In this document: positions 12,438-55,208 of the stretch, piece by piece
Numbering within the stretch: the stretch's first letter is position 1
How the letters are laid out: every line of letters starts with the position of its first letter
Origin: an uncultured Eubacterium sp.
GTDB taxonomy: Bacteria; Bacillota; Clostridia; Lachnospirales; Lachnospiraceae
DNA: 57,277 bases
Assembly: GCA_905236805.1 (NCBI GenBank)
Contig: CAJOPH010000029.1
Location: 1 to 57,277 of the forward strand
Reading direction: 5' to 3'
Program-made: the position numbers and the translations under genes
The notes under the pieces: generated by a model
Databases searched by the model: none
Seen by the model: only the letters and a program-made list of their open reading frames with translations
Told to the model about the DNA's origin: nothing

Positions 12438-13096
12438 GACTTTTTAACGATATTTCCTTTTTCCTTGAAAATGGAATCCCCATCCACCACTCCCCTCACC
12501 ATGGAAAGCGGGTAGATGGTGGTGTTTTTTCCTATTATGGATCCCGGATTAAGGACGCTGTTGCACCCCACTTCCACATGATCTGCCAATATGGCGCCTA
12601 TCTTCCTTAGGCCTGTACTTATTTCATCGGTGCCGTTTTTTATGACTATGTCGCTCCTGTCGGATTTTATGTTGGATGTGATGGAGCCTGCGCCCATGTG
12701 TGACTTGTATCCCAATATGGAATCCCCCACATAATTATAATGCGGAACCTCCACCCCGTCAAAGAGTATGACGTTCTTCAGCTCGGTGGAGTTTCCCACC
12801 GTCGCGCCGCATCCCACTATGGCAGAACCCCTGATAAAGGCTCCATGCCTTATACGGGCATCCTCCCCTATTATTGAGGGACCTCCTATATAGGCAGATT
12901 CCATCACCTGCGCGGACTTTGCCACCCAGATGTCTTCTCCCCTTCTTTCGTAGATTTTGGGGTCTAATCCCTCTCCTATCTCCATGATCCACCCGGAAAT
13001 ATATTTCAATGCCTCCCATGGGTAGGTTACCTTCTCAAGGTATGGCTTCGCGATGGTTTTTGAAAGGTCAAACAGACCGCATATCCTGATATCCAT
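12434..13096 (-). CDS. left-handed beta-helix (hexapeptide repeat) transferase-like protein
   Basis: Hexapeptide-like repeats are present (IGEDARIRHGAFIRGSAIVGCGATVGNSTELKNVILFDGVEV...). ATG at 13096 follows GAGGAGAA. The stop overlaps the helicase start (ATGA). Confidence 0.6.
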   Translation of the reverse strand: MDIRICGLFDLSKTIAKPYLEKVTYPWEALKYISGWIMEIGEGLDPKIYERRGEDIWVAKSAQVMESAYIGGPSIIGEDARIRHGAFIRGSAIVGCGATVGNSTELKNVILFDGVEVPHYNYVGDSILGYKSHMGAGSITSNIKSDRSDIVIKNGTDEISTGLRKIGAILADHVEVGCNSVLNPGSIIGKNTTIYPLSMVRGVVDGDSIFKEKGNIVKKS

Positions 13097-13131
13097 GCTT
13101 TTCTCCTCGTATATATGGTTTATGGTAAACG

Positions 13132-39100: not shown

Positions 39101-39329
39101 TTGAATCATACGCGCCCATGAAAATGACGGCATCCGGACGGATGCTCTCAAATATCTGAGGTATCGATTCATTTACGTATGAGAAATTGTATTGCTCGAA
39201 AACCTTCGGTATACGCTTTTTTACATGATCCGTACCCGTAAGGACATAGATTCTGTCGCCTTCCTTGGAAAGCTTGTCTATCAGGGCATCACTCAGATAG
39301 CTCCTTGCTCCTACTAAAGCTACATCCAT
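36147..39329 (-). CDS. pelD: PelD-like c-di-GMP receptor fused to an N-terminal SDR/epimerase-like domain and C-terminal Ig-like repeats
   Basis: 1060 aa. Aa 1-310 have an extended-SDR fold (DAVIFMGAY, LYLSSEQV, RLDHLYG) with no YxxxK anywhere, and VGARSYLS replaces GxxGxxG. Four TM follow at about aa 325-440, then a GAF-like region and a degenerate GGDEF-like region with RSSD (37275-37286). Two 71-aa Ig-like repeats lie at 36648-36860 and 36423-36635, followed by a beta-rich tail. Confidence 0.75.
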   Translation of the reverse strand: MDVALVGARSYLSDALIDKLSKEGDRIYVLTGTDHVKKRIPKVFEQYNFSYVNESIPQIFESIRPDAVIFMGAYDSNFPDQVEQRHILEYSTGLVNILTSLSSMNKKVRFLYLSSEQVFENPSTENYTEESEVPTISNPKNNLIRQGEMTVKNFGSFGNMETISLRLDHLYGTPASSYDMPPMFREMLKEALDDGMIHSNSRHEFSMLHSSDAVDYIYRVMTAESFEKDLYHLSSGKVVNETAVANLLAEGLGREVKVEERNVGAPFRLVLDGSCFHTEFGTRVFDDPQKTLPQLASAVKHHYTKYFGTKKKNKEDRAQGIKAQVADIIFKLIPFIENAVMFIPFFMLNNRATDSQYFANLDFLLLYVLLFAVVFGQQQAAFSGVLATAGYLYRQQYDRSQFDVVLDYNTYVWIAQLFIVGLVVGYIKDRLKVIRDEDEVEIDYLTRQREDISEINTTNVQIKNVLENQIVNQEDSFGKVYSITSSLDHYEPEDVLFFAAEIVEMLVGTQDVAIYTVENSDYARLFAATSPIARSLGNSIKYPEYTDLYEDFINDRVYVNKTMDERYPLMANAIFSEEKMRMIVMVWGIPWDHMNLGQANMLKVIGLLIQNAVVRANNFMDALEQQRYLEGTRILETGAFTSLVRAFLNAQRRELTIATVLRLNFKNVGDTRELETASHMIRSSDYMGSLSDKNYYLLLSNTDREAAKFVIDRFDKKGIGTTVMETQDVFYLLEQEIEQIEPQIVPDGGEADSSQEAGTWGAMEIPKEDRTKILGMRGEASVDEIVEESNIAQALAGDLSKMSLAALHGGDIPEGDDPIDLSMVRVLDFQDVYGFTGRPIQPKPTMAIGDYLLRRGHDYEIAYVNNTRPGTGTLTIEGMGRFVGEIKKDFKICYSVEDVVVFDLDDIYPFTGDPVAPKITVRYGLRILEHGEDYVLSYENNRSIGTGIVVIHGQGKYTGKKSLPFKIGLLPPKAVISRSLGAPTIAWEETPGCDGYQIFRYNPHSGKWKRTAELPAGVNKWTDSDARKKGRTRGRYAIRSVRDDKVSEIAIISMNRGVSA

Positions 39330-39342
39330 AGTATTTTACCTG

Positions 39343-40437
39343 CTATATTACTTTTAAAAGATTCTCCCACTCGGAGACGATCTTTTCAATGCCAAAATCT
39401 TCGACCCTTACCAGCGCATTCCCGGCGAGATGATCCCTCACATCAGCATGATCCATAAGATATCTCATCTTCTCAGGAAACTCCTCATCACCACGCACGA
39501 GGTATCCGTTTTTCGCATCATCTACTATCTCACGCGGACCCGTACGCACATCCCTTGCTATCACGGGCACCCCGTGGGAAAAAGCTTCCAAAATCACCAT
39601 TGGAAAACCCTCTGTCCTGGAAGGAAGGACAAAGCAGTAAGCATCCCGGTAGAGCCTGTCCATGTCAGCTACACGTCCAATGAGAAATGCGTTCTTTAGG
39701 CCATTGTTCTTTATGTATTTGGACAACCTCCCGTATTCAGGACCATCGCCCGCGATAATGAGCCTAAAGCCCCTGCTTTTTGCCTCATCCTGAATCCGAT
39801 CCCAGGCCCAAAGCAATGCGTCAAAGCCCTTTCTCTTTATGAGGTGACCTGCCGAGAGGAAATAGGGATGAGGGTTTTGGGAAAAGGAGGCTTTGGAGAC
39901 GCCCTTACCCTCTTTGGAAGGAGGAAGGGATGGATTATATATCTGAGCCAGCCTTCCATCCTTAAATCCCATCCTGCTGATATGAGCCCTTCTGTCTTCC
40001 TCCGTGAGGACTATAGTCCTTACCGCATGCTTTTTTGCAAAAGCCTTCGCCAGAATCCTGTGCGGATAGTCCCTGAGGAAGTAATAATTAAAATGCTCCC
40101 ATGAGAGTATCTTCACGGGGAGGTCTCCCGCCGCTAGGGAGCTGTATATCGTAAGCACGCTGTCAATATCCACTATCACGTCCACACAGCTGCCTTTAAG
40201 GTATTTGCGAAGGCGGGCTACGACCACAGGTCCGTCCATGACGAAAGAACCCCTGCCCCTCCGGATAACGTGGGATAATGTTATATTTTTATTTAACACA
40301 AAGCGGGGACGGGCTTTGTAGACGCTCAATGCACATACCTCATACCCCTTTTCCGACAGGGCGTTGGCTATAAGCGTCCCTACCCTCTCCGTACCTCCGC
40401 CATTTCCAATGTTCCCGAAAAAAAAGCATATTTTCAT
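39343..40437 (-). CDS. family 4 glycosyltransferase, first gene of the pel-type locus
   Basis: 364 aa with MKICFFFGNIGNGGGTERV and EGFPMVILEAFSHGVPVIA (E-x7-E). There is no Shine-Dalgarno sequence in the 15 nt before the ATG. Confidence 0.8.
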   Translation of the reverse strand: MKICFFFGNIGNGGGTERVGTLIANALSEKGYEVCALSVYKARPRFVLNKNITLSHVIRRGRGSFVMDGPVVVARLRKYLKGSCVDVIVDIDSVLTIYSSLAAGDLPVKILSWEHFNYYFLRDYPHRILAKAFAKKHAVRTIVLTEEDRRAHISRMGFKDGRLAQIYNPSLPPSKEGKGVSKASFSQNPHPYFLSAGHLIKRKGFDALLWAWDRIQDEAKSRGFRLIIAGDGPEYGRLSKYIKNNGLKNAFLIGRVADMDRLYRDAYCFVLPSRTEGFPMVILEAFSHGVPVIARDVRTGPREIVDDAKNGYLVRGDEEFPEKMRYLMDHADVRDHLAGNALVRVEDFGIEKIVSEWENLLKVI

Positions 40438-41450: not shown

Positions 41451-43796
41451 ATGAGAAGTCCACTTTGGAAAAGGATCCCCAGGGATCTTTTTCGTGAATT
41501 TATTAAATATCTGGCTATCTTTCTTTTCATGACCCTGACCATAGGATTTGTTTCAGGATTCCTTGTCGCGTCACGCGGAATGCAGATAGAGTATGATGCT
41601 TCTTTCGAAAAATACAACGTGGAAGACGGGCATTTTACCCTGGATGAGGAATGCACCGCGGAACTTAAAGAAAGAATAGAAGAGCACGGAGTAAGAATCT
41701 ATGAAAATTTCTACTCGGATCTTTCCGTTGAAGGAAAAAACGAAACAGTTTTAAGGATTTTCAAACCAAGGCAGGAAGTAAATAATGTGGATATCCTGGA
41801 TGGCAGGCTCCCCAAGAGCGATGATGAGATTTCGCTGGATCGCCTTTTCATGAGGAACAATGATTTCAAGATGGGAGATGATATCACTTTATCGGGAAAG
41901 ACCTATCGCATCTGTGGGATGGTGGCCCTTTCTGACTACAGCACCCTTCATAAAAATTATAATGATTTCATGTTTGACTCAACGAATTTCGGGGTGGGAA
42001 TAATCTCCAACGAGGCCTTCGGGCAGATAGATGAGGACTCCTATGTTTTTGAATATGCCTGGAAGTATGATGAGTTTCCGGAAAGCGAAACCAAAGAAAA
42101 AGAAGTATCTGATGATCTGATGATAGATGTGGCCAAGGATGTTCTGAAGGAGGGGAACCGGCTCAAAGCCTTTGCTCCCAGGTATGCAAACCAGGCTATA
42201 ATGTTCTCGGGAGATGACCTGGGGAGCGACAGACCCATGACAGAGGCGCTTTTATATGTCCTTATATTCATTATGGCCTTTGTCTACAGGGTGACCATTT
42301 CTCACACCGTGATGAGAGAGTCCTTTGTAATAGGAACTTTAAGGTCCCTGGGCTATACGAAGGGGGAGATATTCCGTCACTACCTGTCGCTCCCTCTTTT
42401 GGTCACATTAATGGCCGCGATACTGGGAAATGTGGCGGGATATACGGTATTTGAAGACGTGGCGGCCTGGCTGTATATGAACAGCTACAGCCTGACGCAT
42501 TATGTTTCGTATTTTTCACCGGAGGCCTTCATAAAAACCACCGTCATACCGATGGCGATAATGACCTTTGTCCTGAGCATTTCGCTTTGGAAAAAGCTTT
42601 CTGTTTCACCGCTTGATTTTATCCGCGGAGATATAACGAAGTATAAAGGGCAGCGGGCCGTTTCTCTGCCTCCCTTTAAGTTTTTTATGAGATTCAGGAT
42701 ACGCGTGCTTTTGCAGAACATGGGCAGCTATACGACGCTCTTTTTCGGTATAATTTTCTCGGGGCTTTTATTGATGTTCTGCATGGTGATGACTCCTTTG
42801 CTTCATGGGTATTCGGAAAATGCCTTAAAATACAAGCCTGCCGATTACCAGTATATCTTGAAGGAGCAGCAAGACCTTGATTCTTCCATAGCCGAAAAAT
42901 ATTGTGTGACCTCCCTGAAAATGATAGATGATTTTTATGACCCTGAGGAGATCTCCGTGTACGGGATAGTGGAGGATACCAAGTATTTTAAGGATTGGGA
43001 TTTTCCGACGGACGGTGTTATCATTTCGTTTGATATAGCGGAAAAATACCGGCTGAAGGAAGGAGATGTTTTTGTGCTGAAGGAGGAATTTGGAACGGAC
43101 CTTTACGCATTCAGGGTGGCACAGGTAGCCGATATAAAATCCTCCATGAATATCTATATGAGCCAGGAAAAATGGTGTGAGACATTTGAGGACGTGATCA
43201 GGGAATCTTCTGATATGGAAGGGCAGCTGGGGCTTATCATAGGGGATATCACGGGCAACAATGACACATCTTTCTACAACGGATATTTTTCCGATGTGGA
43301 ACTGGACGGAACATATCTTCGTGATGATGTGGTGGCAACCAAGATTACGGATGCGGATCTTACCGCACTCTCGAGGCAGATGGACATATCCATGGGAGAG
43401 ATGTTTCAGATGGTCTCGGTGTTTGCGCTGGTACTTTTTGCGCTCCTTATATTCCTTCTTACGAAGCTGGTATTGGAAAAAAACGCCTCCTCCATTTCCA
43501 TGACAAAGATATTAGGGTATTCGGATGTGGAGATAGCCAGGCTCTATCTGATGCCCTCCGTATGGGTGGTGATCTTTTCGTCGATAATGGCCCTTGTCTT
43601 AAACACCTTGTTCTTTAAGGTGATCCTAAGGATTTTTCTGAAAGGGTATGGCGGATGGTTCGACCTTGTCATTTCACCGGGGCTTTATTTGGAAATGTTT
43701 TTGATGATGTTTTTAACATATTTGGTAGTGGCAGTATTCCAGTTTTTTAAGATCAAAAAAATACCGCTGGATGAAGCCTTGAAGAATGCGGAATAG
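41451..43796 (+). CDS. ABC transporter permease with two FtsX-type modules
   Basis: 781 aa. Two repeats each comprise a TM, a large extracytoplasmic domain and three TM (FtsX/MacB-like), e.g. RESFVIGTLRSLGYTKGEI and SISMTKILGYSDVEI. Confidence 0.8.
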   Translation: MRSPLWKRIPRDLFREFIKYLAIFLFMTLTIGFVSGFLVASRGMQIEYDASFEKYNVEDGHFTLDEECTAELKERIEEHGVRIYENFYSDLSVEGKNETVLRIFKPRQEVNNVDILDGRLPKSDDEISLDRLFMRNNDFKMGDDITLSGKTYRICGMVALSDYSTLHKNYNDFMFDSTNFGVGIISNEAFGQIDEDSYVFEYAWKYDEFPESETKEKEVSDDLMIDVAKDVLKEGNRLKAFAPRYANQAIMFSGDDLGSDRPMTEALLYVLIFIMAFVYRVTISHTVMRESFVIGTLRSLGYTKGEIFRHYLSLPLLVTLMAAILGNVAGYTVFEDVAAWLYMNSYSLTHYVSYFSPEAFIKTTVIPMAIMTFVLSISLWKKLSVSPLDFIRGDITKYKGQRAVSLPPFKFFMRFRIRVLLQNMGSYTTLFFGIIFSGLLLMFCMVMTPLLHGYSENALKYKPADYQYILKEQQDLDSSIAEKYCVTSLKMIDDFYDPEEISVYGIVEDTKYFKDWDFPTDGVIISFDIAEKYRLKEGDVFVLKEEFGTDLYAFRVAQVADIKSSMNIYMSQEKWCETFEDVIRESSDMEGQLGLIIGDITGNNDTSFYNGYFSDVELDGTYLRDDVVATKITDADLTALSRQMDISMGEMFQMVSVFALVLFALLIFLLTKLVLEKNASSISMTKILGYSDVEIARLYLMPSVWVVIFSSIMALVLNTLFFKVILRIFLKGYGGWFDLVISPGLYLEMFLMMFLTYLVVAVFQFFKIKKIPLDEALKNAE

Positions 43797-43806
43797 GCTG
43801 GTGATC

Positions 43807-46800
43807 TCACACCAGCATCCGCTTTGCTTCCTCTATGACTTCATCATACTCCCTCATTACCGCATCATGCCCATGACGTATGTCATCTATCCTCTCCTCT
43901 TTCCCGGCCTTTTCGAGCTCATAGGCATGGTCGGCAAACTCCATGGCCCCTATGGTCTTTGAAGTGCTCTTTACGGCATGTATCTGCACGGTATAATTCC
44001 GTATGTCTCCCTCCTCCAGATATTTCTCAAGGGCTCTCATCTTCTCATCTTTTTCCTCCACATAGGTCTTTAGCATCTCCTTGTAAAAATCCGGATCTTC
44101 CATGCAATACCCAAGCCCTACTTCCATGTCAATATGCTTTTTCCCATCTTCTTTTTCTTCAGGCAGACCGTCTGAAATATCCTCCTTAGACTCAGAGGTC
44201 TTGGAAACATTTGCAGCCTCCGGGGTCTTGGGAACATCTACAGCCTCTTGGACCTCTCGGGTCTTCACATCCCCTAAAGTCTCTCGGGTCTTTGCCTCCC
44301 CTGAAGGCTCTTTAGTCTTTTCGCTTTTTGATGATTTCAAAGATACCTTTTCCACCGGCAGATATTCCTTCAGGATCTTTTCCATTGCCCTGACTTCTAT
44401 GGGTTTTGAGATATAGTCGGTAAAACCCTCCTTCAGATACTCCTCCCTGGCACCCGATATTGCGTTGGCGGTCATCATGATGACAGGCATTGAGCCATCA
44501 AGAAGACCCTTATTTTGCATCTCATGCAGTGTCTCCACACCATCCATCTGCGGCATCATATGATCGATAAAGAGAATGTCGTATTCACCTGCCGCTGTCT
44601 TTTCTATTGCCTCCCGGCCCGAGATGGCCGTCTCTACCTGCATGGCAGAACGCTTCAAAAGACCCTTTGCCACCTTGAGGTTCATATTGTTATCATCAAC
44701 GACAAGAACCTTCGCGTCGGGAGCGTAAACATATTCGACCTCAGATGTTTTCTCCCCGGATGCCGCCAGCGTCTTCTCATAATCCCCGATAGGCGTATCA
44801 TCCACTATCTGCTGCCTTATGTCAAAATAAAAGTTAGAGCCTTCTCCGTAAACGCTGTCAAGCTGAAGGGAAGAGTCCATCATAAGAAGGAGCTTTTGCA
44901 CGATGGAAATTCCAAGCCCCGTCCCTTCTATTGCCCTGTTTTTCTCCATATCCAGTCTGGCGAAGGACTCAAACAAGGTCTCCCTGTCCTCATCCCTGAT
45001 ACCCATGCCGGTATCTTCCACCTCCACATGGAGGATAATATATTCAGCCGTTCGTCCCGCGGAATTTATGCGCAAAGTCACGCTGCCTTCCTGCGTATAT
45101 TTCACGGCATTTGTAAGTATATTCGTTATGACCTGCCGTATCCTCACATCATCCCCGTAGAGCGACTTGGGCAGATTGGAATCTATTTCCAGCTTAAGCA
45201 AAAGATCCTTCTTCTCCGCGCGCTCACGCACCATGTTTACGAGGTCATTTACCATGGACGCGGTATCATACTGTACCGGGACGATCTCCATTTTTCCGTC
45301 CTCTATCTTTGAAAAGTCCAGGATACTGTTGATCAGCGTAAGAAGTGTTCTTCCCGCATTTTGGATATTGTCGGAGTATTCCAGAACGTCCTCGTTGTCC
45401 GTCTCCCTAAGGATCATCTCGTTCATTCCAAGGATGGCATTTATGGGGGTTCGGATCTCATGTGACATCTGCGCAAGGAACTTTGATTTTGCCTCCCCCG
45501 CATATCTTGCGTCATCAGCGGACTTTTGAAGGACACTTACAGCCCTCTTCTGCCGTCTGTCGATCATGCGAAGCAGCATGACGGTAACCGTGATCCCCAC
45601 GCCAAATATGATCAAAAAGACGATATCGTATCCGACGAGACTCCCATAGATCACTTTCCAGTTCTTTATACAGAAAATGGAAAATCCGGTTGTTTCATCC
45701 GTGACTGCATATACGGCCTTGTAATTTCCGTCATAATCCTTCAGCAAAACCGTCTCATCGGCATAAGCCGCATCAAGGTAGCCCGCCTCCTCCAAAGAAA
45801 CAGCCCTTTCCTCGGTCATCTGATATTCGCCGTCGGGATGGTTTATGATATTTCCATCAGAATCCGCAATGAAGGCATACCCCTCGTCAGTGTAGCTTGA
45901 CGCAAGGATCTCCGTTAGCTTGTCCAGGAAAAAGTCGATTCCGAAGATTCCAAGATAGTTGCCGTTCTTGTCATAAACCCTCTTTGATATCGTGACGCAG
46001 TACGCCCCCACCTGGGAATCAAAATATGGCGTGGTGATGTAGAAGCCATCCTCCTTTTCCGACTCCATGCTTCCTATATACCACTGCCTCTCCTCCATGT
46101 TCCATCCCTCTTCCGGCTCCCATCCGTTGTTCATGATAACGATATGCTCCGCCTTAGGGTTGGTCATGTATGACACGGAAATATCCTCATACTGTACGGT
46201 GATATCGTTAAGCCACTCCACGCAGGCCTCATAGTCATCAAGGATCGTGGGGTTCGTGGAAATGTAGCTTACGAACATATCAAGCACGCTCTTTTGCTCT
46301 ACGACCCACGAATCGAGTTCTGAGACATATCCTTCCGCCTCCCTCTCCATCCGGGTATTTCCCCAGTTTTTCATGATAGTGGTAGATATGCTGATGCAAA
46401 GGATCATGGTGAAGGCAAGCAATGTAACGATTCCCGCCGCGGCTTTCATCTTGGATTTATCCGAAAGCTGTATATCCTCTGCTTTGGAAGAACCGTATCT
46501 TTTTTTTCGTGTGGTTTTTTTCCCTTTGTCTTTTTCGCTCTCTTTCAGAAAGGACAGTCTTCCAAATGAATCACGCAGGCTTACGGAAGACTTCTTTAGT
46601 TCTCCCATATATTCGTCGGGATCGTCGCTGGATAAAAACATCCGGTAATCACTCTTTTTTACCACCTCGTCCATCGGAGCCTTCATCTCATCTACGATAT
46701 CCGAGATGGCCTGTTCCGTCCTAAACAGGCGCCTTTCGGCTCTTTTTCTGTATTTTTGCCCGATAATATACAAAAGGATGATCCCTGCCATAAGGCATAT

Positions 46801-48543
46801 ATCCAAAAAAGTGTATAATATGAGGCTTAAAAGATTGGTTCTGTAGAGTCTTGCGTCACTGACTACAGACAAAAGATACCACTCGTTCTGCGTACAGCTG
46901 TAAAATACGGTACTCTCGCTCCCTGATATCTGTGTTTTGAAAAACATGGAGTCCTGTCCGGACGAAAGTATCTTACGAAAGGCAGAAGTATATTGCGGAA
47001 GAGCCTGCGCAAGGGTCTGTCCAAGGAGCGACTCATCCGGGTACCCCACGATCTGCCCCGCGCTGTTTACAATCAGGGCGTCTCCGCCCTCAATGGTAAT
47101 ATCAGAAACATTTTCCTGAAGGGAGACCAAAGAAAAATCCAGTCCGACAACGGTATCTTCATCCTCAAGTAGCTCTGATACCGTAAAACACATATCTCCC
47201 GTCCTGGCATCCTGATAGGGAGCCGTGATATACACATTGCCCCGGCCCTTTTTCTTCGCGCCTTTATACCAGTCCCTTTCAGTTGCGACAAACCCCTCAG
47301 TCTCAGTAAAATCCGGTATTATATACCAGCCCTCACCCGCTGTGTATATATTCATGCAGTCTTCATTTCCATATTTTTCTTTCAGCCCGTTCAGGTATTT
47401 TTCAAGCTTTTCATTACCCGTGTTGTCTGAATTTTCTTCGATCAGGCTGCTTACGCCTTCAGCCACCTTGTGCGTCAGTATCTCCGATTCGTAAAGGGTA
47501 CTTTCGAGTTTCCCTGAAACCTCAGTAAGCTGCTGCCTTCCGAGCGCCTGTGACTGATTTCCTATCATGTCATAAAACTGCTTTACATTTAGTCCCAGTA
47601 TCAGCGCCATGGCTACGGCAAATACCGCAAGTATCACATAATTAAATCTGTTCTTTAAGAAATTGCCTTTTCCCTTTGTCTTAGGCTTTTTTTCTTTTGC
47701 AAAAAGCAGACCAAAGGTTCCCCTCCCGCAATTCGATGAAATGGCGGGGGAAGCCTCCACGCATCTTATGTCCTTAAAATCCGCATATCTTTTGGTCTCC
47801 TCCTTTATCTCATCAAGCTCCCGATCCGAAAGACCCGCATGTGAGATAAAAAGGATGGAGTTATCTATCCTTTCAAAATCCTTAAGCTCATGACGGATGT
47901 ACGCCTTCTTTACCTGATCCCACTTTCCAAACCTGACTCCTCCCACAGAGATCTTACCACGTTTCATCATAAGAAGCGGATGAAGAAGCAGCTTCTCACA
48001 GATACGGAAAACCCCGTCAGAAAGTCGTCCGCTTCTGTTTAGAAATTCCAGATTCTTTACGATAAAGCCGGAGGATATCCCTTCAGCGTATTTTTTTACT
48101 TCTTCCCTCAGCTCATCGGCACTTTCAAAATCCTTTGCGATCCTTGCGGCATAAAGTACCACAAGTCCCAGACCGCTGGATATCTGGCCCGAATCAAGTA
48201 CACTTACGCCTGATATTTTCCCTGTGGCTTCCACCGCGTTATCGTAACCCCGGGAGGAATTTCTTCCCATGGAAATATGCAGGATCTCCCTGCAGTTTTT
48301 TTTCTGCCGCACAAAAAAATTCCGGTAGTCTTCAGGCGAAGGTGCCTCTGACTGCGCAAATTTTTCCGGATCTTCCATGTACTCCAAGACCTCATCAGCC
48401 GATATTTCAAGGTCATCCAGAAACTTTCCGCCGGAGGTCTTTACATAGTATGGACATATCGCGATTGGAAGAGACAAAATCATTTTGTCAGGCAGATCGC
48501 ATACACTGTCTGTGGTTATTAAAATACCGCCACTGTCACTCAT
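43807..48543 (-). CDS. hybrid sensor histidine kinase: DegV domain, two extracytoplasmic Cache-like domains, HisKA-HATPase, receiver, Hpt
   Basis: 1578 aa. Aa 6-282 are DegV-like (ILITTDSVCDLP...APSPEDY...VLDSGQISSGLG...FLNRSGRLS...ISSNCGRGTFGL). There are four TM and two Cache-like blocks of about 240 aa. The H-box FLAQMSHEIRTPINAILGM places the His codon at 45460-45462. GMGI and GTGLGISIV are present, along with a REC (VLVVDDNNMN...LFIDHMMPQMDG) and an Hpt (QIHAVKSTSKTIGA). Confidence 0.85.
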   Translation of the reverse strand: MSDSGGILITTDSVCDLPDKMILSLPIAICPYYVKTSGGKFLDDLEISADEVLEYMEDPEKFAQSEAPSPEDYRNFFVRQKKNCREILHISMGRNSSRGYDNAVEATGKISGVSVLDSGQISSGLGLVVLYAARIAKDFESADELREEVKKYAEGISSGFIVKNLEFLNRSGRLSDGVFRICEKLLLHPLLMMKRGKISVGGVRFGKWDQVKKAYIRHELKDFERIDNSILFISHAGLSDRELDEIKEETKRYADFKDIRCVEASPAISSNCGRGTFGLLFAKEKKPKTKGKGNFLKNRFNYVILAVFAVAMALILGLNVKQFYDMIGNQSQALGRQQLTEVSGKLESTLYESEILTHKVAEGVSSLIEENSDNTGNEKLEKYLNGLKEKYGNEDCMNIYTAGEGWYIIPDFTETEGFVATERDWYKGAKKKGRGNVYITAPYQDARTGDMCFTVSELLEDEDTVVGLDFSLVSLQENVSDITIEGGDALIVNSAGQIVGYPDESLLGQTLAQALPQYTSAFRKILSSGQDSMFFKTQISGSESTVFYSCTQNEWYLLSVVSDARLYRTNLLSLILYTFLDICLMAGIILLYIIGQKYRKRAERRLFRTEQAISDIVDEMKAPMDEVVKKSDYRMFLSSDDPDEYMGELKKSSVSLRDSFGRLSFLKESEKDKGKKTTRKKRYGSSKAEDIQLSDKSKMKAAAGIVTLLAFTMILCISISTTIMKNWGNTRMEREAEGYVSELDSWVVEQKSVLDMFVSYISTNPTILDDYEACVEWLNDITVQYEDISVSYMTNPKAEHIVIMNNGWEPEEGWNMEERQWYIGSMESEKEDGFYITTPYFDSQVGAYCVTISKRVYDKNGNYLGIFGIDFFLDKLTEILASSYTDEGYAFIADSDGNIINHPDGEYQMTEERAVSLEEAGYLDAAYADETVLLKDYDGNYKAVYAVTDETTGFSIFCIKNWKVIYGSLVGYDIVFLIIFGVGITVTVMLLRMIDRRQKRAVSVLQKSADDARYAGEAKSKFLAQMSHEIRTPINAILGMNEMILRETDNEDVLEYSDNIQNAGRTLLTLINSILDFSKIEDGKMEIVPVQYDTASMVNDLVNMVRERAEKKDLLLKLEIDSNLPKSLYGDDVRIRQVITNILTNAVKYTQEGSVTLRINSAGRTAEYIILHVEVEDTGMGIRDEDRETLFESFARLDMEKNRAIEGTGLGISIVQKLLLMMDSSLQLDSVYGEGSNFYFDIRQQIVDDTPIGDYEKTLAASGEKTSEVEYVYAPDAKVLVVDDNNMNLKVAKGLLKRSAMQVETAISGREAIEKTAAGEYDILFIDHMMPQMDGVETLHEMQNKGLLDGSMPVIMMTANAISGAREEYLKEGFTDYISKPIEVRAMEKILKEYLPVEKVSLKSSKSEKTKEPSGEAKTRETLGDVKTREVQEAVDVPKTPEAANVSKTSESKEDISDGLPEEKEDGKKHIDMEVGLGYCMEDPDFYKEMLKTYVEEKDEKMRALEKYLEEGDIRNYTVQIHAVKSTSKTIGAMEFADHAYELEKAGKEERIDDIRHGHDAVMREYDEVIEEAKRMLV

Positions 48544-50593
48544 AAGATCCTCCCGTTAGTTTTTTTATGCACCTTGCCATTTCCTTTATACCGACAGGCT
48601 TAGGCAAAAATTCATCAAACCCCTCAGCCAGAAATCCCTCTCTCGCGCCGCTTACGGCGTTAGCTGTAAGTACCACGATCGGACGTTTGCTGTAAAATCC
48701 GTTTCTGATCCGCCTTATTTCCTTCATGGCATCCGTCCCGTTTTGGAGCGGCATCATGTGATCCATAAATATTATATCAAAATCATTGACGGCGCAGAGG
48801 TCTTTGGCTTCCCGGCCGCTATTTGCTTCCGAAACCATAACCCCCATTTTTCCCAGTATGCCCCTTGCTACCATGATATTCATTTTCTCATCATCCACCA
48901 CAAGGGCATGTACTTTCCCACTTACGGTAAATTCCTGATCATCGGAAGTTTCGGAAAGCGACATCGTTTTGCTCCCGGGCGATGTTTTTTTAAGGAAATC
49001 AACGACCGAAAGCAAAAAAACGGGCTTGGGAATGACAGTGATGTGACTTCCTTCTTTCAGGGAAAAATCAGGTCCCGCAAAGATACATACCCATATCTGT
49101 TTTGCTTTTTTTTCAAAGAAATCAGGATCTGTTTCATATTCCCTCTGCGCGATAAAGATATGGGTGATTTTTCCATGGGATACAAGTTCTTTTAGATTGT
49201 CAATAGACGAAGCGATCTCAACGTTTACGCCGATATCCTTTACCACATGATCTACGACCCGGTAGTAGTATTCACCGACCTCATACCTTACATATTTCTT
49301 CCTGTCAAACCAGCACAGCGCACGATATCCGCCCACGTTTTCAATGGCTATGGAAGGAGTCTTGTCTATTACTTTCTGCGGCAGCGTTAAATGAACATTG
49401 GTACCTTCCTCGCTGCTTTTCATGGACATAAAGCCCTGCATGGAGGTCACTATCCCATGCGCGATATATAGTCCCAGGCCAAGTCCTCCCTTTTTTCTGT
49501 CCGTGTTGGTATCTCCGGCATAGACCCCTTCCCTGTATTTTGACAGCTCTTTAGGATTCATGCCCTTACCGGTATCACGGATATCGATATTCAGGTTTAT
49601 CCCATAGTCAGTATCCCGTTTGCTCACATAAATATAACCGCCGCCTACTTCCGTGAATTTCACGGCATTGTCAAGCAAAATGACGATGAGCTTTCTGATG
49701 CGTTTCGCATCACCCAAAAGGACTCTTGGAATATCAGGGTCAATATCTATGGCAAAGTCAAGATCCATCTGTTTGCTCCCGAACACCATTCCCACGGAAT
49801 CATTGACCACTGACAAGATTTCGTACTCTTCTTCGGAAAGCTTAAAATACCCTGACTGAAGCTCAGAGTAGTTTAAGATATCGCTTACCTCCCTGCGCAT
49901 ACGCCTGCCGGCGCGGAATATCGCATTCAGGTTTTTCCTGTCTTCATCGCTTCGTTTTTCGGAAAGCATCAGCTCGGAAATCCCGCTCACCACATTTATC
50001 GGTGTGCGAAGCTCATGGGACATATTGGAAAGAAAACGCTTTGTTTCTTCATGCGCTTCATCTACCTCCTTGCGGAGGGCTTCCTTTTCCCCGGAATCCT
50101 TCTGGTAAATACTCATAAAATAAAGGGATATGACGGTCGCGAAAAACAAACAGAATATTCCCAGCGCTATCCTGGAATAAACGATCTGTTCGGTTCCCGG
50201 CTCCAGGAAATGAACAAAGAAAATACTTTCAAAAATATATGCAAGATAGGATACCGCCACGAGGATCACGAGTTTCTTGTCATTTTGCCTGGAAAGAAGT
50301 ATGATCAAAAGACACAAGAGGATCGGCACATCCGTTATGCTCTGTCCCTTCCCCCCGTAATAGCCAAGGACACAGAGCATAACGATCACGTAAAAGTATA
50401 GCCTAAGGCCTGCTTTTCCTATATCGAGGAAATGGATACACCAGCACAGAAGCACTGATAACGTAACGGGAAGCAGTGCCCACGCTCCCCAGTCAGAGAT
50501 GACTATGATCACATCCAGAAGGGCGCACATCACCGTAAATGAGACCAAAACCACCACATGAAAGCCTGTTTCCATTTCTTTATCCTGTGCCAT
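48536..50593 (-). CDS. hybrid sensor histidine kinase (polytopic N-terminus, HisKA-HATPase, pseudo-receiver-like insert, receiver)
   Basis: 685 aa with about six N-terminal TM, the H-box FLSNMSHELRTPINVVSG, DTGKGM, GGLGLGLYIA and a C-terminal REC (ALVVDDEKMN...IFMDHMMP). Its stop overlaps the next kinase start within ATGAGTGA. Confidence 0.85.
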   Translation of the reverse strand: MAQDKEMETGFHVVVLVSFTVMCALLDVIIVISDWGAWALLPVTLSVLLCWCIHFLDIGKAGLRLYFYVIVMLCVLGYYGGKGQSITDVPILLCLLIILLSRQNDKKLVILVAVSYLAYIFESIFFVHFLEPGTEQIVYSRIALGIFCLFFATVISLYFMSIYQKDSGEKEALRKEVDEAHEETKRFLSNMSHELRTPINVVSGISELMLSEKRSDEDRKNLNAIFRAGRRMRREVSDILNYSELQSGYFKLSEEEYEILSVVNDSVGMVFGSKQMDLDFAIDIDPDIPRVLLGDAKRIRKLIVILLDNAVKFTEVGGGYIYVSKRDTDYGINLNIDIRDTGKGMNPKELSKYREGVYAGDTNTDRKKGGLGLGLYIAHGIVTSMQGFMSMKSSEEGTNVHLTLPQKVIDKTPSIAIENVGGYRALCWFDRKKYVRYEVGEYYYRVVDHVVKDIGVNVEIASSIDNLKELVSHGKITHIFIAQREYETDPDFFEKKAKQIWVCIFAGPDFSLKEGSHITVIPKPVFLLSVVDFLKKTSPGSKTMSLSETSDDQEFTVSGKVHALVVDDEKMNIMVARGILGKMGVMVSEANSGREAKDLCAVNDFDIIFMDHMMPLQNGTDAMKEIRRIRNGFYSKRPIVVLTANAVSGAREGFLAEGFDEFLPKPVGIKEMARCIKKLTGGSYE

Positions 50594-50671: not shown

Positions 50672-52060
50672 TTATTTTTCCCTCATGTCGTAATCCTTAT
50701 CCTCATCTATCATCTCCAGCATGATGTCCGCAATCTGCCCGTCAAACTGCGTGCCCTTCCCCTTCTCTATCTCGGAGCGCACCACCTCCTGCGGAAGCGC
50801 TTTACGGTAGCTTCTGTTTGAAGTCATGGCGTCATAACAGTCTGCCACGCAGATGATCCGTGCCACCTCCGGTATATCATCTCCGCAAAGTCCGTCAGGG
50901 TAGCCTTTGCCGTCTATACGCTCGTGATGCCAGTGGGCTCCCACCGAAAGCCCCGGCATCTCTGATATGGTTTCAAGGATCAAAGCCCCCTTTACCGTAT
51001 GGCTCTTTATCACCTCAAACTCTTCATCCGTAAGCTTTGCCGGCTTGTTTATGATCTCATTCGGGATGCCAATCTTTCCGACGTCATGAAGCATCGCCGC
51101 ATAATAAATATCGTTTACCTCATCATCCTTTTTACCCATACGCCTGGCCAGCTCCCTGGAGTATGCAGCGACCCGGTTCGAATGTCCGTTCGTGTATGTA
51201 TCCTTTGCGTCAATAGCACCGGAAAGGGCAAAAATGATCTGCTCCGAGAGCTTTTGGATCTTGCCAATGCTCGCGATAAGATCCTTGGTCTTTCTGTCCA
51301 CCTCGGCCTGAAGGAAATTTTGGAGCCTGTGAAGCTCCGTGATGCGGTGCACCCTCTCCCTTACGATCTCTGCATCGAAAGGCTTTCGGATAAAGTCCAT
51401 GACCCCCATCCGAAAGAGCCTTTTTTCCACTTCCCTGTCATCGTCCGCCGTAAGAACGACGACCGGAACCCCCCTTACCCTATCCATCTGTTTCATTCCG
51501 GCGAAGGTCTCCTCCCCGTCAATCCCCGGCATTTTGTAATCCAGCAGGATGATATCAGGCTCGTTTTCCTGAAGGAAATCCAAGCCTTCCTCTCCGGAAG
51601 AGACGGATGATACCTGATATATCCCGTCAAAGATCTTTTTCATCATCATATGGTTCATCGGTTCATCGTCAATGACCAGCATGAGAAGGTTGTCCTTTTC
51701 GGCCAAGGCATCCTCTACGGCGGCAATCATTTCCTTAGGCCTCAGGGGCTTTTTTATAAAGCCTTTTGCCCCAAGGCGAATCGCCTCTGACATATCATCC
51801 TGTGATCCTGACGCGGTAAGAAAAGCTACCCGAAGCTCCGATAAGGAAGGATTCTTCCTTATCTCTTCAAGCGTCTGTATTCCGTCCATTTCAGGCATTT
51901 CGACATCCAGAAGCAAAAGGTCTACCGGAACTTCCCCAAGAACCCCAAGGCACTCCTTTCCGGAATTGGCCGTAATGACCTCGTAGCCTGCTTTTTCCAG
52001 GACGAATTTTGTGTTCATACGGTTCATCTTCTCATCATCTGTGACAAGTATTTTTTTCAT
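50672..52060 (-). CDS. response regulator with two receiver domains and an HD-GYP output domain
   Basis: 462 aa. REC1 is ILVTDDEKMN...LLLLDVEMPEMDG and REC2 is LVIDDEPMN...IILLDYKMPGIDG, followed by HDVGKIGIP and HHERIDGKGYPDG. Confidence 0.9.
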   Translation of the reverse strand: MKKILVTDDEKMNRMNTKFVLEKAGYEVITANSGKECLGVLGEVPVDLLLLDVEMPEMDGIQTLEEIRKNPSLSELRVAFLTASGSQDDMSEAIRLGAKGFIKKPLRPKEMIAAVEDALAEKDNLLMLVIDDEPMNHMMMKKIFDGIYQVSSVSSGEEGLDFLQENEPDIILLDYKMPGIDGEETFAGMKQMDRVRGVPVVVLTADDDREVEKRLFRMGVMDFIRKPFDAEIVRERVHRITELHRLQNFLQAEVDRKTKDLIASIGKIQKLSEQIIFALSGAIDAKDTYTNGHSNRVAAYSRELARRMGKKDDEVNDIYYAAMLHDVGKIGIPNEIINKPAKLTDEEFEVIKSHTVKGALILETISEMPGLSVGAHWHHERIDGKGYPDGLCGDDIPEVARIICVADCYDAMTSNRSYRKALPQEVVRSEIEKGKGTQFDGQIADIMLEMIDEDKDYDMREK

Positions 52061-52121: not shown

Positions 52122-55100
52122 CTACAAAAGATTTTCCAGGGTCTCGAAGAGAACATCCGGTTCTATCGGTTTTGAAAGGTGTGCGTTAAGTCCGGCCTGC
52201 AGGCTATGCTGCACGTCCTCATCAAAAGCATTGGCTGTAAGCGCAATGATAGGTATTGTTTTTGCATCCGGCCTGTCCTTTTGCCTGATAAGCTCCGTCG
52301 CCTGAAGTCCATCCAGCTCCGGCATGCGCATATCCATAAGGATCGCGTCATAATATCCTTCAGGATTATCCATAAACATATCTACCGCTATTTGTCCATT
52401 GGCGGCATGCTCCGACTTGATGTCCCTCATCTCCAATATGTTCATGAGGATCTCGGCATTGATATCCACATCCTCTGCCACCAGTATTCTTTGCCCGCCA
52501 AGCTCTGCTTTCTTCTCCCCCGGTCCCGCACTCTTTTTCTTCATGGAATTCTTGAATTCCTCAAAGAGATTGCCTATGAACAATGGCTTTGATATGAAGC
52601 TGTCCACTCCGGAAGAAACTGCCTCATCTAATATGTCGTCCCAATTATAGGCCGTAAGTATGATGATCGCTGATTCATCACCTACTTCCGACCTTATCTG
52701 CCTCGTGGTCTCGACCCCGTCCATCCCGGGCATCTGCCAATCCACCACGATCAGATTGTAAGGCTCCATCCTTCCATGGCGAAGCTTTACCATCTCTAAT
52801 GCTTCTTCACCTGAATGGGCAATATCTGCTGACACTCCCGCCTTGCCAAGAACCAGCTTCGCATGGTCACATGCAACGGAATCATCATCCACGATAAGAA
52901 CCGTCATCTCCTCGGGATTGATCTCTATATCCCCATCGTCCGCCGAAAAATCCCTTGACGAATCCAAAAGGGTGACAGTCACGGTGAAGGTGGTTCCCTT
53001 TCCCTTTTCGCTTTCCACCTCTATGTCACCATTCATCATCTCCACGATACTTTTGGTGATCGCCATACCCAGCCCTGAGCTTCCGTACTTGTTGGCGGCC
53101 ATCTCGTCTTCCTGGCTGAAGGTTTCGAATATCTTCGGGATATACTCCTTGCTCATTCCGATACCGGTATCGGCCATGACAAACCTTAATGTCGACCTGT
53201 TGTCAAATCCTCCGGTCTTTTCCACCCGGAAATCAACTCTTCCGCCTTCCGGGGTGAACTTCACCGCGTTGCCCAGGATATTGATAAGGATCTGCCTTAG
53301 CTTGGTACTGTCACCTACGTAATAATCTTCTACGTTTCCCTTGATATTGCAATTGTATTCAAGACCCTTTTCCCTGCACTGTCCGCTTATTATGGTATTG
53401 ACCTGCTCCAACAGCTTGGAAAATGAAAACTCCCCGTTTCTCAAAGTCATCCTTCCCGACTCGATACGGGACATGTCCAGAATATCATTGATAAGGGAAA
53501 GAAGATGCTGCGCGGAGCCCCCTATCTTTTCGAGATAATCTCTCGTGGTATCAGAGATATCCTCATCATTTAGAGCAAGGCTGTCAAGACCGATTATCGC
53601 ATTCATCGGTGTCCTTATCTCATGGCTCATGTTGGAAAGAAATACGGTCTTTGCCCTGCTTGCCTCCTCGGCCGTCTTTAAGGCATCGCTTAGGGCCTGT
53701 CTCTTTTCAAGGGAATCCCTCATGTCCTTGTCAATATCGGTAAAGCCCACGCCCACGGCATGGACCCTGTGGTCGTCCCTGTCCTCGGCATGGCGCACAC
53801 CCGCCATCCTCAGCATTTCATAGCTTTCCACACCATCCCTTATGACGAGGTACCTGTAGCTTATTATCACTTCATTGGCAAGCCTTCCCCTGATATGGTC
53901 AGGCTTTATGAATTCAAAAAAGCCGTCCCTGTAATCCTCCGCAACGTATTTTTGCGCATATTCACCAAATGTGCTCGCAAAGTGGAAATGCCCTACCTGG
54001 CTGATGCCGTCATCAAAATTTCTGTCGTTTTGGTAGCATATTCCATCATCATTGTCAAGGTCTACATAATATACGCTCCTGTAATCCGAAGCCAGGGCCG
54101 TGATCATCTTGTCCTGCCTGGTTCTTTGCTTTTCCTTTTCCAAAAGCTCCTCCTGCAGGGCAAGCTGCTCCTCGAGCTCCTCCTGGCGGACGCGGTTTTC
54201 GGTCTCCGAAATCTCCTTGTCCAGGGTCAGCTGAGCCGCCTTTTTTGACTGCAGAATGACAAACAAAAATATGCCCACGATCATTACCGCCGCGACCACG
54301 GACAGCACCAGGCTTCTCGTGATTATCTTGTCTGATATGGTGTTCATCTGCTCACTTATGACACTCTCCCTGACAAGGTATGTAAGCATCCAGTCAGTGC
54401 CGGAAACAGGAACATAATATAAGGTTTCCTTGATATCATTATAAGTAAATGATGCCACTCCCTTAATCGATTCATTAAAGTCCTTACTCACCTCTTCTAT
54501 GGAATACTCATCTTCAAAATCCGCATGCTCCAATGCCAAAAGAAGATTGTCCTCGCTCGCAAGGCCTCCCAACACCATGTTGGCCAGGGATATCCCGTCT
54601 TTGGTATAGATGTTGCAAAATGTCGTGTTGTTACCGGACTGAAGAGATATCCCGGAAAGCATGTTGTCCATGTCTATTTCAACAAAGCATGCGACAAGTG
54701 TATCTCCCTGAAAGGAAAGCCTGTCCACCGGAACGGCTATGATCACCTTTTTATTATCGCCCTTGACATCCTTGACCGAAATCTGTGGCTCGGAGATTTC
54801 ATTATAATCAAAGCCATATTCTTCAATATCGGTCCTTGTTCCCCTGGACGTATATATCATCCCATCCGTACCGACAAAGGCAAACTTTTCAAAACCGTAC
54901 ATCTGCTTCATTTTTGCCTGGTATGCCTGGAAGTTATCGACACTTTTGAGGTCTTGTTTATCCATCAGCCACAGGGCGATATCAATATCCGAGATATAAT
55001 CATCCAGAACAGACTCGACTACCTGCTCCCTTCTTCCTGCCAATTCCTCCAGATACAAAAGGCTTACGTTTCTAACAGCCGTACCGGTATCATTGCTCGC

Positions 55101-55208
55101 GCTTCTTCCCGTCATCAGGGTTCCCACCACGAGAACGCCCGCCACTATCACACTGCCGATTATAAGGATCGGCATAATGCTTTTCCTTTCTTTGTTTTTA
55201 GATGCCAT
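52122..55208 (-). CDS. hybrid sensor histidine kinase (Cache-like sensor, coiled coil, PAS-like domain, HisKA-HATPase, two receivers)
   Basis: 1028 aa with two TM flanking an extracytoplasmic domain of about 270 aa. The H-box FLSNMSHEIRTPMNAIIGL, DTGIGM and GLGMAITKSIV are present. REC1 is VLIVDDDSVA...LIVVDWQMPGMDG and REC2 is ILVAEDVDIN...AILMDMRMPELDG. Confidence 0.9.
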   Translation of the reverse strand: MASKNKERKSIMPILIIGSVIVAGVLVVGTLMTGRSASNDTGTAVRNVSLLYLEELAGRREQVVESVLDDYISDIDIALWLMDKQDLKSVDNFQAYQAKMKQMYGFEKFAFVGTDGMIYTSRGTRTDIEEYGFDYNEISEPQISVKDVKGDNKKVIIAVPVDRLSFQGDTLVACFVEIDMDNMLSGISLQSGNNTTFCNIYTKDGISLANMVLGGLASEDNLLLALEHADFEDEYSIEEVSKDFNESIKGVASFTYNDIKETLYYVPVSGTDWMLTYLVRESVISEQMNTISDKIITRSLVLSVVAAVMIVGIFLFVILQSKKAAQLTLDKEISETENRVRQEELEEQLALQEELLEKEKQRTRQDKMITALASDYRSVYYVDLDNDDGICYQNDRNFDDGISQVGHFHFASTFGEYAQKYVAEDYRDGFFEFIKPDHIRGRLANEVIISYRYLVIRDGVESYEMLRMAGVRHAEDRDDHRVHAVGVGFTDIDKDMRDSLEKRQALSDALKTAEEASRAKTVFLSNMSHEIRTPMNAIIGLDSLALNDEDISDTTRDYLEKIGGSAQHLLSLINDILDMSRIESGRMTLRNGEFSFSKLLEQVNTIISGQCREKGLEYNCNIKGNVEDYYVGDSTKLRQILINILGNAVKFTPEGGRVDFRVEKTGGFDNRSTLRFVMADTGIGMSKEYIPKIFETFSQEDEMAANKYGSSGLGMAITKSIVEMMNGDIEVESEKGKGTTFTVTVTLLDSSRDFSADDGDIEINPEEMTVLIVDDDSVACDHAKLVLGKAGVSADIAHSGEEALEMVKLRHGRMEPYNLIVVDWQMPGMDGVETTRQIRSEVGDESAIIILTAYNWDDILDEAVSSGVDSFISKPLFIGNLFEEFKNSMKKKSAGPGEKKAELGGQRILVAEDVDINAEILMNILEMRDIKSEHAANGQIAVDMFMDNPEGYYDAILMDMRMPELDGLQATELIRQKDRPDAKTIPIIALTANAFDEDVQHSLQAGLNAHLSKPIEPDVLFETLENLL

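Follow-up and report, generated by a model that had tools for sequence, protein, structure and literature searches.

What can a DegV domain, the fold of the fatty-acid-binding FakB proteins, be doing at the N-terminus of a sensor kinase? The question is raised by a gene (43807..48543, minus strand) in the 57,277-nucleotide contig of an uncultured Eubacterium sp. analysed here, which we call the window. The product of this gene, the DegV-kinase, has 1578 amino acids (aa) and is encoded by one uninterrupted open reading frame (ORF) of the ORF listing. We found that its DegV domain belongs to a divergent clade whose members almost always form part of a conserved two-kinase signalling cassette. 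The reading that we favour, on sequence grounds and with a probability of about 0.45, is that this DegV would be a membrane-proximal regulatory module that binds a lipid-type ligand and tunes a multi-kinase phosphorelay.

Gene model of the DegV-kinase

An earlier note on this DNA had proposed the fusion and had named a true start codon downstream of the DegV-like region as the observation that would speak against it. The sequence secures the upstream start. The ATG at 48543 is preceded, at a spacing of 5 nt, by a Shine-Dalgarno sequence GGAGG (48549..48553, minus strand) read from the sequence, the last 8 nt of the kinase gene in front, its stop included, are shared with this start (ATGAGTGA), which is a typical coupled arrangement, and the stretch between the end of DegV (aa 283) and the first transmembrane helix (TM1, from aa 302) is without any Met. 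Furthermore, an in-frame TAA (48556-48558) lies five codons 5' of this ATG, the stop-to-stop frame ending at 48555, and therefore an upstream start and a longer version of the gene are excluded. An internal start at TM1 was rejected too, given the continuous frame, the lack of a Met and the occurrence of the same architecture elsewhere.

The ortholog in locus L003 (P0007) is 67.6% identical over residues 1-1577, and the genes upstream of it are also orthologous to those of the window (75.5% identity for the response regulator, which has a further ortholog with 62% in L002, and 65% for the partner kinase with six transmembrane (TM) helices, here HK1). The same architecture, in 1554-1568 aa, is present in the independent assemblies L003 and L006-L012, L009 ending at a contig edge. 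The gene-model signals, these assemblies and the full-length ortholog together lead us to regard the fusion as a conserved gene under selection, not an artefact. It could be argued that a separate degV gene was wrongly joined to a kinase gene by assembly or gene calling, because standalone DegV genes occupy the same operon slot in other genomes. However, mis-assembly or a frameshift is effectively refuted by the continuous frame and by the independent assemblies, and we give this explanation virtually no chance.

A DegV fold with a remodelled site

Regarding the identity of the domain, the profile check that had been proposed gave a significant match over the full length: Pfam PF02645 matches aa 7-283 over profile positions 2-279 of 280 (E=1.1e-38, 133.7 bits against a cutoff of 27) and TIGR00762 (DegV) reaches 151 bits against a cutoff of 99.7. 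The AlphaFold (AF2) model of aa 1-290 has a predicted local distance difference test (pLDDT) score of 91 and a predicted template modelling score (pTM) of 0.89, and the two-domain DegV fold, an N-terminal EDD domain plus a C-terminal alpha/beta domain, is predicted with confidence. When this model was compared with the PDB by Foldseek, the top 45 matches were all DegV/FakB proteins. Fatty acids are present in most of these crystal structures, and the TM-scores run from 0.73 to 0.85, a single one being lower than 0.77. FakA_C and DhaQ/DhaK trailed far behind (TM-score about 0.55 for the Dha proteins, with DhaQ as 2IU4 and 2IU6). According to the model, then, the two-domain DegV/FakB fold is fully kept in the window protein.

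The motifs on which the earlier note had relied could all be located, namely TDSVCDLP (aa 11-18), SEAPSPEDY (aa 65-73), VLDSGQISSGLG (aa 115-126), FLNRSGR (aa 167-173) and GRGTFG (aa 273-278), and so could the changes from TSQPS to SEAPS and from SGTY to SRGY. Nevertheless, the statement that the DegV pattern is followed block by block does not extend to every block, since the His of the 'aHtGpG' motif is Asn271, 'KP' has become 'HP' and the Leu that contacts FakA is Lys184.

These positions have known roles in FakB. The carboxylate is held by T61, S93 and H264-270 and R170/173 is required for catalysis (PMC10848957, PMC9136124), and L181 and R202 are needed to bind FakA (PMC10848957). We mapped the residues on an alignment of 153 relatives plus three PDB sequences, and the frequencies given below refer to 147 clade members. 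The head-group positions S65 (T61), S97 (S93) and R173 (Arg170) are conservative replacements or retained; R173 is present in 9/9 proteins of the window type and is R or K in about 85% of the clade, with Y, Q or N in some members. N271 replaces the carboxylate-binding His of the C-terminal motif. At the FakA-contact position Leu181 the window has K184 and the clade has Ala, Arg or Lys, and the position of Arg202 is Lys207, variable across the clade. H188 stands instead of the invariant Lys of the 'KP' motif (K185>H), R98-G99 in place of G94-T95, and Q63 is Ala (Q63>A). The clade has added a basic residue beside Ser97, R98 here or K/R in many members. The pocket positions are mixed (A121>I, A158>S, F263>A), with A264 in place of a bulky residue, F263 or Ile, and H89, C182 and C272 are new.

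The signature of the clade is S65, H89, S97, R98, G99, R173, C182, K184, H188, A264, N271 and C272. Frequencies are about 95% for S65, 98% for H89, 87% for C182, 90% for A264, 97% for N271 and 92% for C272. The clade-specific Cys/His set consists of C182, C272, H89 and H188, often together with C15, although H188 is Arg in 6/9 of the window-type proteins. Because the clade-specific residues are kept in around 85-98% of the members and are absent from canonical DegV, this conservation argues for selection on an altered yet functional site and not for decay.

The NCBIfam equivalog for FakB1 (NF038249) scores 69.2 bits, far from its cutoff of 350, and neither FakA nor a second DegV was found within the 57-kb window. 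Since the equivalog score, the carboxylate triad (His to Asn) and the FakA contacts Leu181/Arg202 all fail, the window DegV falls, judging by its sequence, within the DegV family and fold, in a distinct divergent clade, and is not a FakB. A canonical FakB partnered with FakA was rejected by the same score and by the His and Leu positions. Given the change of His to Asn, the lost Leu and the new Cys and His residues, the fatty-acid binding of FakB is therefore not simply transferable to this domain.

Distribution and architectures of the clade

An exhaustive HMMER search with aa 1-290 as the query gave 199 cluster representatives below 1e-30, and we classified the best 150 of them with the window's own domains, ten of these with Pfam. 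Around 60% of those classified are multidomain signalling proteins. The commonest architecture, of about 889 aa, has five or six TM helices followed by the histidine kinase (HK), a receiver (REC) and DegV. We also found DegV-[membrane/sensor]-HK-REC-Hpt, HK-REC-DegV-Hpt, REC-DegV(-Hpt) and DegV-Hpt proteins, as well as standalone domains of about 285 aa.

Scanning of species-representative genomes with a 5-sequence DegV alignment showed that at least 205 species genomes, for the most part from Clostridia of gut and rumen, carry a relative of the window DegV, and all our locus counts refer to the best 80 of these. The 80 loci all come from Clostridia of gut and rumen (Lachnospiraceae, Oscillospiraceae, Ruminiclostridium, Acetatifactor, Dorea, Oscillibacter, Eubacterium). 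HK-REC-DegV is found in 69 of them, with a constant spacer of 32-39 aa between REC and DegV, and DegV-Cache-Cache-HK-REC-Hpt in 6 plus one truncated case; the rest are DegV-Hpt (2), a truncated DegV-HK (1) and a standalone DegV (1). Thus the N-terminal DegV of the window is a minority permutation (7/80). The earlier note had called a DegV-kinase fusion unusual. The fusion is real, but it is not a singular oddity, being one permutation of a whole family.

In a neighbour-joining tree, calculated without bootstrap, the N-terminal forms group together, apart from the mass of HK-REC-DegV proteins, and the canonical FakBs lie outside on a long branch. The remaining N-terminal forms are DegV-5/6TM-HK-REC-Hpt, and the window type therefore seems to be a lineage that exchanged the polytopic membrane domain for two TM-dCache_1-TM modules.

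We found one member outside Clostridia, in Fibrobacter sp. UWEL (WP_073229881.1, locus L089), where a 680-aa HK-REC is followed, with a stop/start overlap, by DegV-HK-REC-Hpt and there is no adjoining regulator. This bacterium belongs to another phylum, Fibrobacterota, and shares the rumen habitat, which suggests that the cassette reached it by horizontal transfer. Its NCBI name is just 'DegV family protein', and so for this member, the one that we looked up, the label conceals a signalling role.

A conserved cassette with a single Hpt

The clade DegVs are almost always embedded in a cassette composed of a regulator, a hybrid kinase with six TM helices and a second hybrid kinase that carries DegV. 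An ortholog of HK1 lies directly upstream of the DegV gene in 72/80 loci, wherever the contig reaches far enough, and in the remaining 8 no upstream kinase was seen. In most loci the regulator is found upstream of HK1, either as REC(-REC)-HD-GYP or as a single REC of about 120 aa; the latter, with no obvious output, occurs in about 39 cassettes. HK1 and the usual DegV kinases are polytopic, with 5-6 TM helices and without extracellular domains. The window fits this description: its DegV, with the Asn-Cys pair of the clade, comes right after the 6TM hybrid kinase, and there is one Hpt.

The position of Hpt follows that of DegV. When DegV is C-terminal, Hpt is missing from the DegV protein and present on the upstream kinase (64/64), and when DegV is N-terminal, Hpt is on the DegV protein and missing from the upstream kinase (8/8). 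Actually, in the examined set we found no exception to one Hpt per two-kinase cassette.

The same parts occur split and fused. L002 has DegV-Hpt, and in L005, L087 and L088 a standalone clade DegV fills the same operon slot; L003 and L006-L012 have the window type, and 69 loci have HK-REC-DegV. The kinase core of the window protein (aa 1017-1402) shares 46% identity with the HK-REC found ahead of the standalone DegV of L005, and its N-terminus and its C-terminus with Hpt are 44% and 36% identical, respectively, to the two halves of the DegV-Hpt proteins. By the Rosetta-stone argument, this fusion/fission series shows, as far as sequence comparison can, that the clade DegV, the second HK-REC and Hpt function together. 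It also offers ready constructs: standalone DegV, DegV-Hpt, HK-REC-DegV and DegV-sensor-HK-REC-Hpt. Clustering of all the neighbouring ORFs in the 80 loci gave no further conserved partner, the best candidate being present in 8 loci.

What the DegV domain may do

Canonical FakBs swap fatty acids with the membrane and leave the head group exposed (PMC9136124), and so the simplest guess is that the ligand is an amphiphile that comes from the membrane. The module would no longer be a substrate carrier for FakA, because the FakA-contact Leu181 is lost and the FakB equivalog score is far under its cutoff. It may act as a cytoplasmic ligand-binding regulatory domain, kept at the inner face of the membrane by the 18-aa basic tether (KEKKPKTKGKGNFLKNRFN) that joins DegV to TM1, and it would most likely bind a fatty-acid-like or other amphipathic membrane-derived molecule at a putative remodelled head-group site formed by Ser65, Ser97, Arg173, Asn271 and Cys272. 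The state of the ligand might then modulate the autophosphorylation of the kinase that carries DegV or its REC/Hpt phosphotransfer. In the window protein this intracellular input would be combined with two extracellular dCache_1 inputs. Phosphoryl groups from three kinases could converge on the single Hpt, at His1522, and pass from there to the REC-REC-HD-GYP regulator, with hydrolysis of cyclic di-GMP (c-di-GMP) as the predicted output. In the family at large, DegV would accompany polytopic, presumably membrane-sensing kinases.

The earlier note had proposed that the kinase could join an intracellular lipid or fatty-acid signal to two extracellular signals. The topology agrees with a cytoplasmic module and two Cache inputs, but a fatty-acid signal cannot be inferred from FakB. 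As for the term 'input module', a module of the kinase in the cytoplasm it is; the input role is an assumption, since DegV follows REC in 69/80 loci and standalone versions share the operon slot.

Several observations weigh against a ligand-binding regulatory module. His is kept in all five solved fatty-acid-binding DegVs displayed and is Asn in the window, and the pocket positions are partly altered (A158>S, F263>A). The place of DegV after REC, in 86% of the loci (69/80), is typical of output or Hpt domains. An AlphaFold model of REC-DegV, made with proteins of the representative search, shows both domains folded (pTM 0.67), with a linker of pLDDT below 50 and no confident interface. No lipid-metabolism gene is consistently linked to the cassette in the 80 loci. 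Moreover, the operon structure of the window is predicted from consensus scans, which gave a terminator-like minus-strand hairpin (55333-55310) and an extended -10 promoter-like site (55288-55260).

The position after REC leads to the proposal that DegV is the output, that is, that phosphorylation of REC controls lipid binding, release or hand-over, so that the relay would also regulate lipid trafficking or membrane composition. The constant order and spacer of the HK-REC-DegV proteins place DegV where an effector normally stands, the cassettes with a single-domain REC regulator have no other obvious output, and the catalytic Arg position is R or K in most members. We nevertheless consider this unlikely, though it deserves to be kept in view, because in the window type over 1000 residues separate REC from DegV, which stands at the extreme N-terminus, because no REC-DegV interface is predicted with confidence and no lipid-metabolism genes are linked, and because the loss of the FakA-contact Leu makes hand-over to the Fak pathway unlikely. 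A domain that works at either end of the protein or standalone, as a protein-interaction module would, that has lost the canonical carboxylate His and the FakA-contact residues and that constantly co-occurs with HK1 might also be a degenerate fold which needs no ligand and serves as a docking site or scaffold to assemble the two kinases, Hpt and the regulator. We find this rather doubtful, since the strongest clade-specific conservation falls precisely on the canonical head-group positions (S65, S97, N271, C272 and R173) and the model gives the two-domain fold in full, with its pocket-forming C-terminal domain, at high confidence.

The conserved Cys and His residues could have another meaning: C182, C272, H89 and H188, with or without C15, may form a metal or redox-sensing site that reports thiol or metal status, not lipids. 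In favour of such a site, two Cys and two His are kept in around 85-98% of the clade and absent from canonical DegV, and C272 adjoins the former position of the carboxylate His; but H188 is replaced by Arg in most window-type proteins and the hosts are gut anaerobes living at low redox potential, which makes a site of this kind improbable. Direct chemistry is to our mind quite improbable too. Acetyl-phosphate phosphorylates receiver domains, and by analogy a fatty acyl-phosphate or a fatty-acid carboxylate held by DegV could donate phosphoryl groups to the REC Asp or the Hpt His, or accept them from these residues. In such a case intermediates of membrane-lipid synthesis would feed or drain the His-Asp relay through a lipid-borne phosphodonor. 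DegV always adjoins REC and/or Hpt, and the clade has its additional basic residue beside Ser97. FakB holds its acyl-phosphate product, which a conserved Arg neutralises, and the related Dha kinase system uses a phospho-His relay (PMC9136124); this Arg is R173, present in 9/9 window-type proteins. However, some members of the clade do not have this Arg, the rest of the head-group residues are altered, the modelling gave no interface and the idea is without experimental precedent. Weighing all of these, we retain the ligand-binding regulatory module as our preferred reading.

Comparison with known systems

The closest known relatives are the FakB/DegV proteins (S. aureus FakB1/FakB2, S. suis FakB2, T. 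maritima TM841 and T. thermophilus 2DT8), which belong to the same Pfam/TIGRFAM family and have the same two-domain EDD-type fold, with TM-scores of 0.80-0.85 to the window DegV. The latter keeps the motifs TDS..DLP, DSxxxSxGxG and GxGxxG, Ser at the positions of T61 and S93 and the equivalent of Arg170. The differences are that FakB is a standalone protein of about 285 aa whereas the window DegV is a domain of a 1578-aa kinase, that His266/270 is Asn and Leu181 is Lys, with the further changes Q63>A, G94>R, T95>G, K185>H and F263>A, that Cys182, Cys272 and His89 are newly conserved, and that no fakA is found nearby in the 57-kb window.

The kinase half has a HisKA-HATPase-REC-Hpt core with all the phospho-acceptors in common with BarA, TorS, ArcB and LuxQ, which are its best NCBIfam matches, although no equivalog threshold is reached. 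These kinases are without DegV, and the window kinase adds to such a core the N-terminal DegV and two tandem TM-dCache_1-TM modules.

The cassette as a whole can be compared with RpfC/RpfG of the DSF system of Xanthomonas, in which a multi-TM hybrid kinase with REC and Hpt acts with a REC-HD-GYP phosphodiesterase on a fatty-acid-type signal. In RpfC, which has no DegV, it is the membrane and juxtamembrane region that senses DSF. The likeness is one of architecture, with no sequence relationship shown, and the present cassette differs in having two kinases and in occurring in Clostridia and Fibrobacter. Another precedent is the reuse of EDD-fold kinase subunits as regulatory ligand sensors, as in DhaK/DhaL-DhaR of E. 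coli and DhaQ-DhaS of L. lactis; DhaQ is among the Foldseek matches. The Dha systems act on transcription factors and not on a His-Asp phosphorelay, they bind dihydroxyacetone and not lipids, and they are structurally distant from the window DegV (TM-score about 0.55).

A full-text literature search did not find DegV fused to, or in an operon with, histidine kinases, receivers or Hpt, which is not proof of absence; PMC12688256, considered as a description of the fusion, was rejected because it concerns a standalone DegV gene in a deleted region. The literature searched thus does not describe any phosphorelay in which a domain of DegV/FakB fold is an integral and conserved part. Regarding its significance, the subfamily is defined by a rewired head-group site with Asn-Cys in the place of His, which would mean that the DegV family is not solely a shuttle of substrates for FakA. 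Long-chain fatty acids from the diet act as major stressors and signals in gut and rumen. If DegV senses a lipid, the cassette would serve specifically to detect lipids or fatty acids inside the cell, with c-di-GMP turnover or a CheY-like regulator as its output. The finding is broader than the earlier note had anticipated, extending to at least 205 species genomes, and yet less straightforward, because DegV is divergent and often in an output-like position.

Domain organisation of the DegV-kinase

The order of domains that had been claimed, DegV, TM1, Cache, TM2, linker, TM3, Cache, TM4, HisKA/HATPase, REC and Hpt, was borne out by Pfam and hydropathy, both Cache domains being of the dCache_1 type and flanked by TM helices. 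The divergent, FakB-like DegV domain of EDD fold, predicted to be cytoplasmic, covers aa 7-283 (47695..48525, minus strand, like all the features of this protein; Pfam, TIGR00762, AF2 and Foldseek). TM1 (aa 302-320, 47584..47640) has a hydropathy of 2.51, with 5 K/R on its N-terminal side against 1 on the C-terminal side. The first extracytoplasmic dCache_1 (aa ~326-559, 46867..47568, Pfam PF02743) gave 67.8 bits against a cutoff of 45 when aa 322-572 were scanned alone, and the match is full-length (profile positions 2-239 of 240). TM2 follows (aa 575-593, 46765..46821, hydropathy 2.28, 7 K/R on the cytoplasmic side).

Between TM2 and TM3 there is a conserved cytoplasmic linker of about 107 aa (aa 594-700, 46444..46764), kept in 8 orthologs with the consensus 'RTExAISDIxxEMKxPMExVVKRSDYRMxLSSDDPDEYM' in 8/8 of them. 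It has no Pfam match. To the eye it looks like an H-box in which another residue has taken the place of His ('DEMKAPMDEV', compared with 'SHEIRTPINAI'), and the alignment of the linker with the dimerisation and histidine phosphotransfer (DHp) domain by hhalign is in the expected register, with a probability of just 5.7%. The linker is possibly a decayed remnant of DHp and H-box. If that is the case, the protein would come from the fusion of two tandem sensor kinases, the first one without its catalytic core.

TM3 (aa 701-719, 46387..46443, hydropathy 2.39) leads to the second extracytoplasmic dCache_1 (aa 759-965, 45649..46269), which is the best stretch of a 124.6-bit match to PF02743 and also matches MCP-like_PDC_1. 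TM4 (aa 973-991, 45571..45627) has a hydropathy of 2.53 and 5 K/R on the cytoplasmic side. By the positive-inside rule, the charges assign DegV, the linker and the kinase core to the cytoplasm, whereas the two Cache modules lie on the outer side.

The HisKA/DHp domain (aa 1018-1083, 45295..45492, Pfam 4.7e-19) contains the motif SHEIRTP, and the phospho-acceptor codon that had been placed at 45460-45462 is indeed that of His1028 in the H-box. It is followed by HATPase_c (aa 1130-1244, 44812..45156, Pfam 1.7e-21), by REC (Response_reg, aa 1279-1391, 44371..44709, Pfam 1.2e-24) with Asp1327 (codon 44563-44565) in the motif DHMMP, and by Hpt (aa 1489-1555, 43879..44079, Pfam 25.9 bits against a cutoff of 24.6) with His1522 (codon 43978-43980). 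Therefore, His1028, HATPase_c, Asp1327 and His1522 are all on one polypeptide, as in a hybrid kinase with Hpt. A search of the PDB with a 60-aa C-terminal fragment gave matches confined to designed repeat proteins.

Probable operon and neighbourhood

The DegV-kinase gene is probably the last of a four-gene signalling operon on the minus strand. The first gene (52122..55208) encodes a 1028-aa HK-REC-REC kinase, assigned by Pfam, with an extracytoplasmic region of about 270 aa between the TM helices at 14-32 and 300-318 that has no Pfam family match. This kinase is missing upstream of the regulator in the orthologous locus L003, and is not part of the conserved cassette. The second gene (50672..52060) encodes the REC-REC-HD-GYP response regulator of 462 aa (Pfam HD_5, 1.2e-34), whose motifs are intact (HD325, GYP386 and the receiver residues Asp52 and Asp174). 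The third one (48536..50593) encodes HK1, of 685 aa, with HisKA-HATPase-REC after 6 TM helices and without Hpt or extracellular domain, as judged by Pfam and TM count; MASE6 gave no match in the window HK1, and a relative of it has a weak precomputed MASE6 match. None of the partner proteins of the DegV-kinase reaches a curated NCBIfam equivalog. A six-frame scan of the window found three kinases, one Hpt and one DegV. An origin from a prophage, a defence system or a mobile element was rejected, as the neighbourhood gives no sign of any of them.

Around 20 kb from the cassette there is a second HD-GYP-like protein of 346 aa (23638-24678, minus strand), related to the HD-GYP domain of the regulator at 1e-31 and with no REC match in the same six-frame scan.

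On the 3' side of the DegV-kinase, a convergent FtsX-type ABC permease gene (41451-43796, plus strand) ends 10 nt from the stop codon at 43807, and therefore there is no room for separate terminators. In relatives of the window type, the place taken here by the convergent ABC transporter belongs to a further signalling gene, downstream of the DegV kinase: L006 has a 1047-aa protein with an HD-GYP match (11726-14867, plus strand), and L007, L011 and L012 have an HK-REC-Hpt of about 870 aa (at ~11657, plus strand). Another gene of the window, a 1060-aa ORF at 36147-40437 (minus strand), adjoins a GT4 glycosyltransferase, and its Pfam matches are limited to the N-terminal ~250 aa (NAD-dependent epimerase/RmlD-like). 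This ORF, whose large C-terminal region is uncharacterised, probably belongs to a surface-polysaccharide cluster.

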